DNA from: Candidatus Velesiimonas alkalicola
Lineage (GTDB): Bacteria > Omnitrophota > Gorgyraeia > Velesiimonadales > Velesiimonadaceae
Direction of reading: 5' to 3'
DNA length: 64,000 bases
NCBI GenBank assembly: GCA_013626165.1
Contig: NDHX01000007.1
Coordinates: 6,560-70,559, forward strand
Each line of letters opens with the position of its first letter. The stretch's first letter is position 1. Positions 3,842-61,078 of the stretch are shown here, piece by piece. Below the pieces are notes generated by a model, which had not been told where the DNA came from, did not search any database, and saw only the letters and a list, made by a program, of their open reading frames with translations. The position numbers were made by a program, and so were the translations under genes.

Positions 3842-3964
3842 CTAAACCCTCTCTACAATAGATAAGGCTTACTGAAAGCCTTGATTACACAGATTTTTGA
3901 AAGATTACACCGATTTTGTCGTCGGGTTTTAATCTGTGTAATCTGCTTTTTAATCTGTGGAATC

Positions 3965-3993
3965 AGGGTCTGATGAGTTTTTCAGCAGACCCT
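3965..3993 (-). terminator. recurrent 3'-end hairpin element (copy overlapping the xseA stop codon)
   Basis: agggtctgatgagtttttcagcagaccct is the reverse complement of the 60317-60345 element. Confidence 0.45.
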
Positions 3994-5214
3994 AGATAGG
4001 AATTCTCCTTTTAATATCTTTGTTTTAATAACCTGTCCTTTTTTAACATCTTTGGTATCCCTTATTATGTTATCACTTTTTTCATCAAATGTAATACTGT
4101 ACCCCCTTTCTAAAACCGAAAGAGGACTAAGGGCATTAAGTCTTCCAGCAAACTTTGCCAGTTCAGAATTGTATATCTGCAAGATATGTTTAAAAGAAAG
4201 ATTAAGCCTGTTTAAAAACTCATCTATCCTCTGTTTCTGTTCATCAAATATAAACTTAGGCTCTCTGATACACCTTTTTTGAGAAAGATTTTTTAGTTTT
4301 TCTTTTAAGGAAGAAATAAAACCAAGAACAGTTAATTGAAGTCTTTTTCTTAAATGGAAGATATTGTTTTCAAGGTCATCCTTGTTTGGCATAACAAGTT
4401 CTGCGGCAGCCGAAGGAGTAGGGGCTCTTAGATCTGCAACAAAGTCTGATATTGTCCAGTCCACCTCATGGCCGACCGCACTGATAACAGGTATCTTTGA
4501 ATGATATACCGCCCTTGCTACACACTCTTCATTAAATGCCCAGAGGTCTTCCAGGCTTCCTCCTCCTCTTCCTACAATTATACAATCAACACATTTAAAA
4601 CTATTGAAATCTTCTATCCCGCTTACAACTTCTTGCGCGGCACCTTCACCCTGAACCTTAACGGAACGCAGTATAATCTCAACCCCTGTCCATCTTCTTT
4701 TCATAATATTTATTATATCATGAAATGCCGCACCGTCTTTTGAGGTCACCACACCTACACGACGGGGAAAAAATGGGATCTGTCTTTTTCTTGATTGTTC
4801 AAACAGTCCTTCTTTCCTTAATTTTTCTTTTAACTTTTCAAATGCAATCTGAAGAGCACCAATCCCCTTTGGCTCAAGATGCTGGGCATATATCTGATAC
4901 TGTCCTGATTTTTCATACACACTGATTCTTCCGCACACTATAACTCTTAGACCATTTTCAATCTCAAATTTTAAATTATTTTTTTCGGTCTTAAATATAA
5001 CAACTTTCACTTGTGCATTTTCATCCTTTAATGTAAAATATATATGTCCGAGTGATGAGCAGATTAAATTTGACACCTCGCCATCAACCCAGATAAGAGG
5101 ATATGCTGTCTGGAGAAGGTCTTTTATTTCTCTGGTAAGCTCACCTACGGTATAAATACGGGCTCGCCCAACGACGGAGTTTTCAAAAGGAACATTACCG
5201 AATAAATCATTCAT
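3982..5214 (-). CDS. xseA: exodeoxyribonuclease VII large subunit
   Basis: 410 aa; N-terminal OB-fold, conserved XseA core (GRGGGSLEDLWAFNEE), C-terminal coiled region. Confidence 0.9.
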   Translation of the reverse strand: MNDLFGNVPFENSVVGRARIYTVGELTREIKDLLQTAYPLIWVDGEVSNLICSSLGHIYFTLKDENAQVKVVIFKTEKNNLKFEIENGLRVIVCGRISVYEKSGQYQIYAQHLEPKGIGALQIAFEKLKEKLRKEGLFEQSRKRQIPFFPRRVGVVTSKDGAAFHDIINIMKRRWTGVEIILRSVKVQGEGAAQEVVSGIEDFNSFKCVDCIIVGRGGGSLEDLWAFNEECVARAVYHSKIPVISAVGHEVDWTISDFVADLRAPTPSAAAELVMPNKDDLENNIFHLRKRLQLTVLGFISSLKEKLKNLSQKRCIREPKFIFDEQKQRIDEFLNRLNLSFKHILQIYNSELAKFAGRLNALSPLSVLERGYSITFDEKSDNIIRDTKDVKKGQVIKTKILKGEFLSRVC

Positions 5215-7782: not shown

Positions 7783-8565
7783 ATGGTTGATATAATTAAG
7801 TTAAGATTAAGAAATATAGATAGAAAAATATGCTGTCTTACAAACGGACTACAGGACTTAAAGCCTGGTAGACAGGTTGTAATACAGGATGAAGGATGTT
7901 TTGAGCATGGGAGCATTCTTTCTTATCCTGAAAAAATGTATTCTGAAAAAGGAAAGATCACAAAAAAGGTTATCAGACTCCTTACAGAAAAAGATAAAAT
8001 CCAGATTGAAGAAAATTCAAAGAAAGCACAAACCGCATTCTTGACCTGCAAGGCTAAAATAGAAGAGATGAAAATGAATATGAAACTTATACATTCGGAG
8101 TACTCTCTTGACAGAACAAAACTTGCATTTTATTTTAAGAGTGAAAAAAGGATAGATTTCAGGGAACTTGTCCAAGAACTAAGCACTATGTTTAAAGCAA
8201 AGATAGAACTCAGACAGATAGGGGTAAGAGACGAGGCTACCATATACGGTGGTTGTGGAAAATGCGGAAGAGAACTTTGTTGTGCAACATTTTTAAAAGA
8301 CATTGAGTCTGTAACAATGCGGTTGGCAAGGGACCAGAACCTGCCGCTTAATCCTTCGAAAATATCGGGTATATGTGGCAAACTGATGTGTTGTTTGGAA
8401 TATGAACATGATGTATATTGTGAACTTTTAAAAGGACTTCCGCATCAGGGTGATATTATAAAAACAAACGAGGGTGAAGGGAAGGTTGTGCAGGTTGATA
8501 TATTGAAAAGAACAGTGAATGTCTTATTGCAGGATGAAAGACAGATAAATGTAGTATACAGGTGA
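7783..8565 (+). CDS. PSP1 C-terminal domain protein (RicT/YaaT-like)
   Basis: 260 aa; Cys cluster GGCGKCGRELCC and PSP1-type domain layout. Confidence 0.75.
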   Translation: MVDIIKLRLRNIDRKICCLTNGLQDLKPGRQVVIQDEGCFEHGSILSYPEKMYSEKGKITKKVIRLLTEKDKIQIEENSKKAQTAFLTCKAKIEEMKMNMKLIHSEYSLDRTKLAFYFKSEKRIDFRELVQELSTMFKAKIELRQIGVRDEATIYGGCGKCGRELCCATFLKDIESVTMRLARDQNLPLNPSKISGICGKLMCCLEYEHDVYCELLKGLPHQGDIIKTNEGEGKVVQVDILKRTVNVLLQDERQINVVYR

Positions 8566-41219: not shown

Positions 41220-42578
41220 TTAGTATCCATCTTCTATTGGGCTTTTATTCCCAAATCTTGTGTATTCCTTAAGAAATACAAGGTCTATGGCGCCTGTAGG
41301 ACCATTTCTTTGTTTTGCAACCTTAAGTTTGACAGTATGACCCTGTTTCTTAGAAGCATCGCCTTGTGAAAAACTATCTTCTTCATCCTGTTCAGTATCT
41401 CTCCACAACATAAAAACCACATCGGCATCCTGCTCAAGGGAACCACTCTCTCTTAAATCTGAAAGACGGGGTTCGCTGTTTTTTCTGTCTCTTCGCTCCG
41501 GCTCTCTTGATAACTGGCATAATGCAAGAACAGGTATTTTCAATTCTTTCGCCATTGATTTTAATGCTCTTGATATGTCAGAAACCTCCTGTTGTCTGTT
41601 TTCAAACCTTCTTTCGCCATGTGTCATAAGTTGCAGATAATCTATCGCAATAAGACCGATATCATATTTCCGTTTTAGCCTTCGTGTAGCAGCCCGTAGT
41701 TGCACAGGAGTTAAGACAGCACTTTCATTAATATATATTTTAAGTTCATTCAATTTACCGGCTGCAATTTGTATATCTGCCCATTGATTGGCTATTCTCC
41801 CCTGTCTTATATTATGACTGTTCACCCTTGCGCAGGAACAAAGCATACGGAAGGTAAGCTCCATTTTAGACATCTCAAGGCTGAATATAGCAACAGGAAT
41901 ATTATTTGAGGCAGCATTTTCTGCAACACAACACATAAACGAAGTTTTACCGATGCTGGGTCTTGCAGCAAGCAATGTTAACTCACCCGGTTGCAGCCCC
42001 CTTGTCAGTCCATCAAGTTCATAAAAACCAGTTAAAACAACCCCGGGTTCTTTATTTCCCTGTGAAACCGAATCTATCATTGCAACAGTTTCATGCAATA
42101 CCTCAGAGATGGGAAACTCTTTTTGAGTATATCTATCTGTGGAAATAGAATATATCCTGCTTTCTGCTATATCAAGCATATCTTCAGCAGACACATTCTG
42201 TTCATATGAGGATGTTGCAATCTCAGAGCAATAGTGGATAAGTTTTCTAAGAGTGGCTTTTTCTTTTACAATCTGTGCATAATAATTACAGTTAGCAGCA
42301 GTTGGAACAGACAAGGCAATACTTGTAATAGCAGTAGGACCACCCACTGTATCAAGTACATTATCTTTTTTAAGTTGCTCTATAAGTGTAAGACTATCCA
42401 GGGGTTGGTTCTGTTGATGAAGTTTTTTTAAAGCATTAAATATTTTTGCATGTGATTCTTTATAAAAATCATCCGCCGTAAGAGTAGAGAATACTTCTTC
42501 TGCTACTTCTATTTCAAGTATCATGCTTCCAAGAACAGCCATTTCTGCTTCACAATTTTGTGGAGGAAGTCTTTCCAT
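41220..42578 (-). CDS. dnaB: replicative DNA helicase
   Basis: Start set at MERLPPQN (3 nt after rplI stop); N-terminal DnaB domain, Walker A ARPSIGKTSF, RecA-like C-terminal domain. Confidence 0.9.
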   Translation of the reverse strand: MERLPPQNCEAEMAVLGSMILEIEVAEEVFSTLTADDFYKESHAKIFNALKKLHQQNQPLDSLTLIEQLKKDNVLDTVGGPTAITSIALSVPTAANCNYYAQIVKEKATLRKLIHYCSEIATSSYEQNVSAEDMLDIAESRIYSISTDRYTQKEFPISEVLHETVAMIDSVSQGNKEPGVVLTGFYELDGLTRGLQPGELTLLAARPSIGKTSFMCCVAENAASNNIPVAIFSLEMSKMELTFRMLCSCARVNSHNIRQGRIANQWADIQIAAGKLNELKIYINESAVLTPVQLRAATRRLKRKYDIGLIAIDYLQLMTHGERRFENRQQEVSDISRALKSMAKELKIPVLALCQLSREPERRDRKNSEPRLSDLRESGSLEQDADVVFMLWRDTEQDEEDSFSQGDASKKQGHTVKLKVAKQRNGPTGAIDLVFLKEYTRFGNKSPIEDGY

Positions 42579-42579
42579 T

Positions 42580-43023
42580 TCACTCTTTAATAACCCAAAC
42601 CTTAAGACTTGCAATTATATCTTTGTAAGGATGAACCTGGACAGTATAAACCCCTAATGTTTTTATCTCTTCTGTTATGTGAACATTCCTTTTATCAATA
42701 GAAATACCCTGCTCTTTTAAGGCATTTACTATATCAGAGGATGTTACAGTGCCAAAGATTTTATCTTCTTCTCCTGCTTTCATACGAATTGTTACAGAGG
42801 TATTAGAAATATTTTTTGCAACCTGTTCCATATCCTGTCTTATTTTAACTTGCAGAGCTTCCTGATGTTTTTTTTCATTTTCTATTTGTTGTGCAATTTT
42901 TTTAGAATATTCAACTGCTAACCCTCTTGGGATAAGATAATTCCTTGCATAGCCGTCTTTTACATCCTGAATATTTCCAATTTTACCAATATTTTCAACA
43001 TCTTTTCTAAAAATAATTTTCAT
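42580..43023 (-). CDS. rplI: 50S ribosomal protein L9
   Basis: [36 protein letters not shown] canonical L9 N-terminus. Confidence 0.9.
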
Positions 43024-43032
43024 AATTTAACT

Positions 43033-43218
43033 GAAATTCCAACATAAGGATGAAATACGAACTCATTCCCCTTTTTCTTAAAAGGGGTGGCAACGAAGTT
43101 GACGGGGTATTCAATGCTACCTTATAACCCAATACCCCACCTGCTAACGCAGGCACCCCTTTACGAAAGGGGAATTAAATACTTGTTTAATCCTTATAAT
43201 TCTTATGTCGGAATTTCA
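43033..43218. mobile_element. MITE-like structured element with ~17-bp terminal inverted repeats (copy A), filling the rpsR-rplI spacer
   Basis: Terminal inverted repeats gaaattccaacataagga / tcttatgtcggaatttc; internal GGGG/CCCC hairpins; second copy at 46859-47040. Confidence 0.45.
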
Positions 43219-43221
43219 CTC

Positions 43222-43467
43222 CTAAGCCACAGAACCTGTTGGTAAAAGAGCAAGGTAACGGGCCCGTTTGACTGCTCTGGCAAGTGACCTTTGATGCCAC
43301 GCACAGGTGCCTGTTATGCGAGACGGAATCATCTTCCCTCTCTCTGTAATATATTTTGCAAGCTTTCCCGAATCTTTATAGTCTATATCTTTTGTATTAT
43401 CTTTACAAAATGTACAAAAAGAAGATCTGACTGTAAAAAATCTTCTTCTATTCACCTTTTTTTCCAT
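43222..43467 (-). CDS. rpsR: 30S ribosomal protein S18
   Basis: Start set at MEKKVNRRR (GAGAGGAG Shine-Dalgarno); [16 protein letters not shown]...[14 protein letters not shown] canonical S18. Confidence 0.9.
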
Positions 43468-43480
43468 ATCTCCTCTCATA

Positions 43481-43530
43481 AGAGCACCAGAGCACCAGAG
43501 CACCAGGCACCGGAGCACCGGAACACCTGT
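43481..43530. repeat. 8-mer CACCAGAG array upstream of rpsR
   Basis: agagcaccagagcaccagagcaccaggcaccggagcaccggaacacc. Confidence 0.9.
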
Positions 43531-46689: not shown

Positions 46690-46742
46690 GACACCAGAGA
46701 AGTGACTAGTTTACTGGTGCTCTGATGCACTGGTGTTCTGGG
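46690..46742. repeat. degenerate 8-mer CACCAGAG array immediately upstream of prs
   Basis: acaccagagaagtgactagtttactggtgctctgatgcactggtgttctggg. Confidence 0.8.
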
Positions 46743-46858
46743 AGATTATGCCGCTTCTTTTTCCATTACAATTTTTGGTTTTTCACCTCAGGTGCAATCA
46801 GGATGGATGACGCACTGTTTTACACCTTGCATTGAAGGTATTTCATAACTGAAATTCC

Positions 46859-47040
46859 GACATGGGGATGAAATACGAACTCATTCCCCTTTTCTCAAAA
46901 AGGGGTGGCAGACCGAAGGTCTGACGGGGTATTCAATGCTACCTTATAACCCAATACCCCGCCTGGCTAACGCAGGCACCCCTTTACGAAAGGGGAATTA
47001 AATACTTGTTTAATCCTTATAATCCTTATGTCGGAATTTC
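46859..47040. mobile_element. MITE-like structured element with terminal inverted repeats (copy B), flanked by 11-bp direct repeat ggtatttcata
   Basis: Terminal inverted repeats gaaattccgacatgggga / ccttatgtcggaatttc; flanking ggtatttcata at 46848-46858 and 47041-47051 (candidate target-site duplication). Confidence 0.45.
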
Positions 47041-47045
47041 GGTAT

Positions 47046-47416
47046 TTCATACATAACATTTAACATTATTTCTTCTTATGACGGTTTGCTCTCAGCCTCT
47101 TCTTTCTTTTATGTTTTGCCATTTTTGCTTTTTTGCGTTTTCTCCCGCAAGGCATACAAACATCCCCCTTTCTGTTATTCTATTGTTAAGAACCTGTAAG
47201 TTCTAATTCCCCTCACACCAGTGCACCAGACCGGTGACTGATGCACCAGACTGGTGACTGGTGCTCCGGTGCTCTGGTGCTCTGTTCATACATAACATTT
47301 AACATTATTTCTTCTTATGACGGTTTGCTCTCAGCCTCTTCTTTCTTTTATGTTTTGCCATTTTTGCTTTTTTGCGTTTTCTCCCGCAAGGCATACAAAC
47401 ATCCCCCCCCTTCTGT
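47046..47416. repeat. ~130-bp perfect direct duplication (47046-47177 and 47285-47416), each followed by an 8-mer array; minus-strand micro-ORF in each copy
   Basis: Identical ttcatacataacatttaac...ggcatacaaacatccccc units; minus-strand ORFs 47066-47155 and 47305-47394 encode MPCGRKRKKAKMAKHKRKKRLRANRHKKK with GGGGGA Shine-Dalgarno. Confidence 0.8.
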
Positions 47417-47466
47417 TTAGAGCACTAGGCACCAGAGCACCAGACTGGTGACTGGTGCTCTGCTAA

Positions 47467-60313: not shown

Positions 60314-60316
60314 AAT

Positions 60317-60345
60317 AGGGTCTGCTGAAAAACTCATCAGACCCT
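60317..60345 (+). terminator. recurrent 3'-end hairpin element AGGGTCTGCTGAAAAACTCATCAGACCCT (copy after nagB)
   Basis: 12-bp stem with one mismatch; same element in same gene-relative orientation at 3965-3993 (overlapping xseA stop) and a partial copy at ~60980-61000. Confidence 0.5.
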
Positions 60346-60978: not shown

Positions 60979-61078
60979 AATTAGTGAAAAACTCATCAGA
61001 CCCTGCAATCTTTTCAAAATCTGTGTAACCAGGTATAATCCTTAAGTTTACACCTGAAGATTATACCAGGAGGAAATT

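Follow-up and report, generated by a model that had tools for sequence, protein, structure and literature searches.

A folded repeat in a ribosomal-protein operon of Candidatus Velesiimonas alkalicola, probably a MITE derived from a DUF559 gene cassette

Between rpsR and rplI of Candidatus Velesiimonas alkalicola lies a repeat of about 190 bp that is predicted to fold strongly, and a second copy lies upstream of prs. A preliminary description of this DNA left two readings of the repeat, a non-autonomous transposon or a mobile structured non-coding RNA module, and took paired differences between the copies as a sign of selection on secondary structure. We asked which reading fits the locus, what the interior of the element is and where its hairpins come from. 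The analysis covered the window (the whole 64-kb stretch of DNA, to which all coordinates refer unless a locus is named) and related loci in MAGs and metagenomes. We conclude that the element is probably a MITE that has the ends of an IS4-like insertion sequence (IS) encoding DDE_Tnp_1 and DUF6788 proteins, encloses the interior of a passenger cassette whose DUF559 gene was lost, and was copied to a second site. For annotation, this would make a strongly folding repeat in a ribosomal-protein operon the remnant of a transposon instead of a novel RNA.

Two copies bounded by terminal inverted repeats

We observed two ~190-bp copies of the repeat in the window, in the same orientation, 186–194 bp long and 91.6% identical over 190 columns. 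No third copy or other similar sequence was found elsewhere in the 64-kb window. The preliminary description had recognized both copies, but gave 46859 as the start of copy B, 8 nt inside the true start at 46851 (46849 with the terminal CT); the copy ends at 47040. Without its terminal dinucleotides, copy A spans 43033–43217/8. Both copies end in terminal inverted repeats (TIRs) of 16–18 bp (GAAATTCCRACATAAG...CTTATGTCGGAATTTC), close to the ~17 bp given before, and 16 of 18 positions match inside each copy.

43031..43219, plus strand: copy A, whole, with CT...AC termini; orientation set by the DUF559 remnant, antisense to the rpsR-rplI operon
43033..43048, plus strand: copy A left TIR, GAAATTCCAACATAAG; the same 16-mer (0–1 mismatch) stands at the IS ends in L015 and L113–L118
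43202..43217, minus strand: copy A right TIR, GAAATTCCGACATAAG on the minus strand (TIR comparison)
46849..47042, plus strand: copy B, whole, with CT...GG termini
46851..46866, plus strand: copy B left TIR, GAAATTCCGACATGGG (TIR comparison)
47025..47040, minus strand: copy B right TIR, GAAATTCCGACATAAG on the minus strand (TIR comparison)
46837..46847, no strand: left 11-bp direct repeat GGTATTTCATA, like a target-site duplication; 3 nt (ACT) from the copy B TIR
47041..47051, no strand: right 11-bp direct repeat GGTATTTCATA, directly abutting the copy B TIR

The 11-bp repeat around copy B, previously likened to a target-site duplication, is perfect, but its left member is set off from the TIR by the 3 nt listed above. 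No target-site duplication was found at copy A. The sole open reading frame (ORF) in the copies is a 52-aa chimeric remnant without a Pfam match, and the window contains neither a transposase gene (tblastn with the IS transposase as query) nor a DUF559 gene.

A search for further copies, which the preliminary description had proposed, returned related elements in other MAGs and metagenomes; in the window and in strain-level metagenome contigs of 99.6% identity (L106, L108 and L111) there are only the same two copies, with both sites filled. No empty site was found, as the strain-level contigs are all filled and the L9 protein, 100% identical to MBA2124126.1, has a next-nearest homologue of only ~51% identity. 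Segmental duplication was considered as the source of the second copy and rejected, since the flanks share only TTTCATAA. A blastn search of plasmids and phages with the element gave no match, and a scan of viral contigs with the TIR 16-mer gave 12 chance matches, in which similarity was limited to the TIR.

Ends of an insertion sequence and the remnant of a DUF559 gene

Species-representative genomes were scanned with the TIR. Besides chance matches, the hits clustered in a few uncultured bacteria: the MAG CAYOYL01 (15 contigs), CAYOFY01 (3), CAYORP01 (2), the Omnitrophota MAG JAZDPL01 (L018) and an Elusimicrobia-labelled contig (L015). The L015 element measures 2,289 bp from end to end and encodes two proteins, DDE_Tnp_1 (505 aa) and DUF6788 (144 aa). 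The termini (C[T/A])GAAATTC[C/T]GACATAAG are common to the MITE and to both ends of this IS. The same gene pair was found amid different flanks in L113, L115, L116 and L118, with ends (CAGAAATTC[C/T]GACATAAGG) that are 2,289 bp apart in each. A further IS copy (L119) lies in JAZDPL01, the Omnitrophota MAG that also holds L018, a relative of the element. Homologues of the L015 transposase are numerous and mostly found on contigs of ~2–3 kb, which is typical of repeats. The preliminary description had suggested looking for a cognate transposase with matching TIRs, and this search was successful at several loci in other MAGs; for the present organism it covered the 64-kb window only.

The L015 transposase scores 29.7 bits against Pfam PF01609, above the cut-off of 23, and 26.7 and 25.1 bits against the NCBIfam IS4 equivalogs, whose cut-offs are 115 and 152. 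A phmmer search with the transposase found no similar chain in the PDB. From these profiles the transposase appears IS4-like, though it falls well under the NCBIfam IS4 cut-offs. The elements in CAYOYL01 and CAYOFY01 have the same ends around unrelated interiors of 159–291 bp, and we therefore regard the ends as defining a superfamily composed of an autonomous IS and assorted non-autonomous derivatives. Flanking repeats occur elsewhere in the superfamily, with 8 bp at L109 and 8 bp with one mismatch at L018, and no target-site duplication was seen at L015, L051 and L071.

Two further observations concern this superfamily. First, 13 of 48 element ends carry an outward-reading perfect TTGACA, compared to ~1.2 expected (L015, L018, L026, L047, L049, L052, L055, L062, L071, L073 and L117). 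The hexamer lies mostly 17–28 nt from the element end, with a -10-like hexamer (TAAAAT, TATAAT or TAGAAT) beyond a 17-nt spacer. This excess suggests that superfamily elements tend to lie just upstream of sigma-70-type promoters; the pattern is absent at copies A and B. Second, in L113 (38–2138) an IS66-type transposase next to the studied IS also has a DUF6788 ORF ahead of it, and DUF6788 may on this account be a general transposase accessory protein.

The interior of the two copies was traced through longer relatives with the same ends. L107, L109 and L110, found in a metagenome scan, are one locus sampled three times and hold an element of ~580–610 bp. In the L109-type element, an intact 129-aa DUF559 ORF (Pfam E = 9.5e-30) lies between GGGGTATTTAATGCTACCTTATAACCCAAAT and AATACCC...CCCCTTTTACAAAAGGGGAATTAAATAC; this ORF starts at the ATG that the window copies retain within their 19-nt "loop". 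The closest full-length relative is the 1,461-bp contig L120. Its TIRs lie at 551 and 1122, and its DUF559 gene is intact, with two modules in tandem on the left and modules also on the right. Across these full-length relatives (L109/L107/L110 and L120) the intact DUF559 ORFs are 129–145 aa long. L018 is an intermediate that keeps just the last 39 DUF559 codons, and a four-way alignment revealed nested deletions. What the window copies retain of the gene is as follows.

43114..43131, plus strand: copy A DUF559 remnant, ATG plus five codons (MLPYNP), with the deletion junction at 43131/43132 (tblastn, alignment and homologue N-termini)
46936..46953, plus strand: copy B DUF559 remnant, ATG plus five codons, with the deletion junction as in copy A

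DUF559 homologues from many phyla have the N-terminus (K)LPYNPxLKxKARELRK. Since MLPYNP is this conserved N-terminus, the six retained codons derive from a DUF559 gene. Copies A and B have the common junction CCCAA/TACCCC, which argues for a single deletion before the duplication.

These data suggest the following sequence of events. The ancestor would have been a DUF559 (Vsr-like) endonuclease gene bracketed by inverted palindromic modules of ~45 nt, inside IS-type TIRs. One internal deletion would have removed the gene and joined its first six codons to the right-hand module. A copy of the resulting ~190-bp element would then have reached the second site, with in-trans action of the IS transposase as the most likely means; such a transposition would yield the direct repeat around copy B. 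The hairpins would have been inherited from the cassette, and the two copies would differ through unequal recombination that kept different members of a tandem module pair.

As gene-less derivatives of a mobile insertion cassette, the window copies would be MITEs in the usual sense (definition in PMC3129680). Like MITEs they are small, lack a transposase, carry the TIRs of an autonomous IS, have a direct repeat at one copy and contain a strongly folding palindromic body. They differ in their very low copy number (two), in that the interior comes from a passenger-gene cassette instead of a deleted IS and in that the partner IS is known from other MAGs. The transposon half of the earlier reading is supported by TIRs that match the ends of the DDE_Tnp_1/DUF6788 IS, by the direct repeat at copy B and by the 8-bp repeats at related elements. 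Evidence against the MITE reading is that there are just two copies and no filled/empty pair, that copy A and several IS copies are without a target-site duplication, and that the copy B repeat is 3 nt off on one side. The element is of an ordinary kind with an unusual origin, and its body did not evolve in place as an RNA. The same ends tie a set of MITEs and cassettes in Omnitrophota-like MAGs to an uncharacterised IS (DDE_Tnp_1 plus DUF6788).

The mobile insertion cassette MIC231 has the ends of IS231, an IS4-family element, and is moved in trans by the IS231 transposase (PMC6199540). L109 and L120 resemble it, with IS-type inverted repeats around a non-transposase gene and a partner transposase that also appears IS4-like. 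The window copies differ from mobile insertion cassettes in keeping six codons only, so that they are derivatives of such a cassette and not members of the class. The passenger of the present cassette is a further difference: it is a putative nuclease gene and brings inverted palindromic modules of its own. Movement in trans is here what we infer.

Palindromic modules and the covariation of their hairpins

We counted four occurrences of CCCCTTT..AAAGGGG in the window compared to 0.02 expected, and all of them are within copies A and B. The left part of the element (ATT-CCCC-TTT..AAA-GGGG-TG-[small hairpin]-GGGG-TATT) and its right part are copies of the same ~45-nt module in opposite orientations. 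Copies A and B contain the following modules.

43064..43111, plus strand: copy A left module, with a hairpin at 43068–43087, the small hairpin CAACGAAGTTG at 43091–43101 and then GGGGTATT; 96% identical to L120 module 2
43131..43176, minus strand: copy A right module, the inverted left module, with the small hairpin CCTGCTAACGCAGG at 43140–43153 and a hairpin at 43156–43172; its counterpart in DUF559 ORFs is the C-terminal tail region
46882..46933, plus strand: copy B left module, with a hairpin at 46886–46905 and the small hairpin CAGACCGAAGGTCTG at 46909–46923; matches L120 module 1, with an identical 15-mer in L129
46953..46999, minus strand: copy B right module, with a small hairpin containing a bulged G at 46961–46977 and a hairpin at 46979–46995

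Predicted folding was far stronger than that of shuffled sequences on both strands of both copies (z = -6.4 to -8.5). The three internal GGGG/CCCC hairpins described earlier are present, but the minimum-free-energy (MFE) fold is a long TIR-closed rod and not three independent hairpins: the left CCCCUUU pairs with the right AAAGGGG, long-range helices are nested, and three hairpins stand at the tip. By its TIR wobbles, copy A favours pairing on the minus strand, whereas copy B favours the plus strand; the copy A mismatch is a G-U in the mRNA sense and an A-C on the opposite strand.

Very stable predicted folds on both strands could also mark a stand-alone structured non-coding RNA gene, repeated by chance. 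We give this explanation hardly any weight. Rfam gave no match in the window at the gathering score and none around copy A at E<=10, which also removes the support for the mobile RNA module of the preliminary description. On six DUF559 loci with related modules, Rfam returned sub-threshold generic hairpin matches only (for example anti-hemB, 25.5 versus 49.5 bits). The copies are without promoter- or terminator-like sites, their centre is the remnant of a protein-coding gene, the module is found in both orientations, and its small hairpin is strictly Watson-Crick paired in the seven modules compared below.

Next to these folds stands the claim that two hairpins differ between the copies by compensatory changes. 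One such difference is real, with CAAC-GAA-GTTG in copy A and CAGACC-GAA-GGTCTG in copy B; the second consists of a bulged G and one substitution that adds a closing pair. The small hairpin of copy A is also found in L018, L107–L110 and L120 module 2. That of copy B is unchanged in L129 and recurs with one compensated pair in L120 module 1, to which the left part of copy B is 86% identical over 94 nt including the TIR. Both variants are thus present side by side in L120, as paralogous modules, and recur unaltered in other organisms, so that the argument from the A/B differences to selection on RNA structure is not supported in the form given. The argument is weakened further by the central "hairpin" being the scar of the DUF559 deletion and by the TIR wobbles favouring opposite strands. 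The simplest account of the A/B difference would be an ancestor with two tandem modules, of which each copy lost a different one, and this is supported by module numbers of two versus three among L107, L109 and L110. Paralogous palindromic modules can in this way mimic compensatory evolution in comparisons of two copies.

Conserved structure, as such, was upheld in the wider module family. We counted pairs on a gap-free alignment of the small hairpin from seven modules of five organisms, because the variable first loop is wrongly placed when whole modules are aligned with MAFFT; the remaining values come from a shuffle test. Five of six pairs were changed on both sides, and 42 of 42 cells were paired, all Watson-Crick and with no G-U. 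Observed values were reached in 0–1 of 500 shuffles, and slid controls paired at <=33%. Among 29 distinct middle segments nearly all were perfect stems of 4–8 bp, with well over ten different stem sequences (Fisher p = 9e-20). The first hairpin alternates between CCCCTTT/AAAGGGG and CCCCTCT/AGAGGGG across modules. Judged from these alignments, the structural constraint is one on the palindromic modules that flank DUF559 genes. The strictly Watson-Crick pairs, the occurrence of modules in both orientations and the opposite-strand TIR wobbles point to a constraint on DNA palindromes, which fits better than one on a single RNA strand.

The same module architecture was found around DUF559 genes without IS TIRs, in L121 (Elusimicrobia), L125, L126 (Parcubacteria), L128 (an Aenigmarchaeota MAG) and L129. 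Modules often form tandem arrays of 2–3, and many predicted DUF559 proteins have N- or C-terminal tails that are translated modules. In L121 (2425–2500) a left-type module is nested in the loop of a right small hairpin, and in L109 (~8110–8155) and L110 (~832–876) a module of 14 codons lies in frame inside the DUF559 ORF. Solitary modules or doublets away from DUF559 genes were absent from ~0.9 Mb of fetched loci and, aside from its two elements, from the window.

Homologues of the cassette protein at 55–90% identity (P0101–P0220) carry Firmicutes, Dehalococcoidia, Elusimicrobia, Nitrospirae, Francisellaceae, Parcubacteria and Aenigmarchaeota labels. This range suggests that DUF559 proteins have spread widely by horizontal transfer, with errors in MAG binning as a possible contribution. 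L128 further contains a direct duplication of 97 bp and 92% identity (~1490–1590 and ~2130–2230) on either side of the DUF559 cassette. What is duplicated is the 5' end of an N6/N4 methyltransferase gene that lies downstream; this gene has remained complete, and its duplicated N-terminus forms a fusion with the DUF559 ORF. Long flanking duplications were rejected as a general feature of DUF559 cassettes, as L128 (97 bp) was the sole clear case and L126 a weak one.

The arrangement recalls REP/REPIN-RAYT systems, with a single nuclease-type gene flanked by inverted palindromes, fixed flanks and variable stems, and a gene-less doublet that folds as a long hairpin. It differs in that the gene is DUF559 (Vsr-like PD-(D/E)xK fold) and not a Y1 transposase and in that no dispersed doublets were seen, so the window elements stand outside the REPIN-RAYT class. 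Rickettsia palindromic elements are in-frame insertions into coding genes. The in-frame module of L109/L110 and the modules that are read through as protein tails are similar to these, in contrast to their sequence family, which is a different one, and to their location, as the present modules were seen only in and around DUF559 genes and not in housekeeping genes.

On the REP/REPIN model, the DUF559 endonuclease itself could move or copy the inverted module doublet via hairpins, and the IS-type ends would then be incidental. We consider this very unlikely for the window copies. Both keep complete IS-type TIRs, the direct repeat at copy B flanks the TIRs and not the modules, and the window is without a DUF559 gene. 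The lack of solitary modules or doublets in the loci surveyed, and of biochemical data on DUF559 in our literature search, also weighs against it. For it speak the modules that bracket DUF559 genes without an IS TIR (L121, L126, L128 and L125/L129), their tandem, nested and in-frame arrangements, and the covariation of the small hairpin between fixed G4 flanks.

A broader proposal, which we put forward tentatively and hold to be possible though doubtful, is that DUF559 genes with inverted G4/C4 modules (AATT-CCCCTYT..ARAGGGG-TG-[variable hairpin]-GGGGTRTT ... inverted copy) constitute an undescribed selfish cassette that spans bacterial phyla and extends to at least one MAG of Archaea. The nuclease would act on DNA hairpins in a REP/RAYT-like manner, modules would multiply locally by tandem, nested and in-frame insertion, and the cassette would settle in short operon spacers; the window elements would be gene-less doublets riding on IS ends. 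A literature search on DUF559 found no paper on repeats or mobility and none describing a cassette of gene plus palindromes. It is this cassette, and not the MITE itself, that is possibly new. DUF559 is a very common nuclease family of "unknown function", and its bracketing by covarying palindromes across distant phyla makes its biology directly testable.

Copy A in the rpsR-rplI spacer

The neighbouring genes are all on the minus strand, with rplI at 42580–43023, rpsR ending at 43222, and then ssb, rpsF, pth, ctc, prs and hisG. Copy A takes up 189 of the 198 bp of spacer between the rpsR stop (43222–43224) and the rplI ATG (43021–43023), in agreement with the earlier statement that it fills this spacer, and copy B is situated upstream of prs. 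Neither copy contains a site that resembles a promoter or a terminator. Copy A should for this reason be transcribed together with rpsR and rplI, antisense to its DUF559 remnant. The rplI ATG is 7 nt 3' of the terminal CT of copy A (43031–43032). Other genes in the window have GGAG-type motifs 5–12 nt upstream of their starts, and rplI has none within 13 nt; one such motif lies on the far side of the element.

43219..43223, minus strand: AGGAG, Shine-Dalgarno-like; overlaps the rpsR stop codon and directly precedes copy A on the mRNA

The element likely separates the rplI ATG from its Shine-Dalgarno motif. We also observed that the right terminal dinucleotide of copy A (43218–43219) is AC where relatives have AG, and that this change completes the mRNA-strand AGGAG at the rpsR stop.

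This placement raises the possibility that copy A has been exapted as a cis-acting RNA, kept in the rpsR-rplI mRNA for a rod-like fold that either brings AGGAG near the rplI AUG as a split ribosome-binding site or stabilizes the transcript. In phage T4 gene 38, a split ribosome-binding site is bridged by a hairpin. The copy A stem could similarly bring a distant Shine-Dalgarno motif beside a start codon; its intervening structure is 189 nt compared to ~20 nt in gene 38, and the copy A case is purely inferred. Copy A does lie between rplI and its sole good Shine-Dalgarno motif, in a window where other genes have theirs close by, and there is no terminator- or promoter-like site within the element. 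The modelled mRNA-sense fold closes with the TIR stem (-81.3 kcal/mol, z = -5.8) and would leave motif and AUG ~10 nt apart, and the TIR mismatch of copy A pairs as G-U in this sense. A hairpin-bridged ribosome-binding site would, if the predicted fold forms, explain how the insertion of copy A was tolerated. Overall we regard such a role as unlikely. The two TIR wobbles of copy B favour the opposite strand, so that the strand signal is inconsistent, the Shine-Dalgarno motif is partly paired in the predicted fold, and the case is one locus only, with the nearest L9 homologue ~51% identical. Reduced rplI translation may also simply be tolerated, given that L9 is dispensable in E. coli.

Other repeats occur in the same region. 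In the strain contig L108, an insertion of ~140 bp (L108 11147–11290) lies at the junction of the rplI stop and dnaB start (window 42575–42589) and is flanked by a 15-bp direct repeat, CCATTTCACTCTTTA. A relative of this insertion lies at 3878–3994 of the window (87.5%), with fragments at 60316–60345 and 60985–61005. This insertion is MITE-like too, and polymorphic, which makes it the second such repeat in the operon. Arrays of the octamers AGAGCACC/CTGGTGCT stand beside several gene starts (43481–43527, 46690–46740, 47222–47284 and 47419–47457), and a 123-bp direct repeat lies just to the right of copy B (47046–47168 and 47285–47407). In this region of octamer arrays and 123-bp repeats, the window is 194 bp longer than the strain contig L111.
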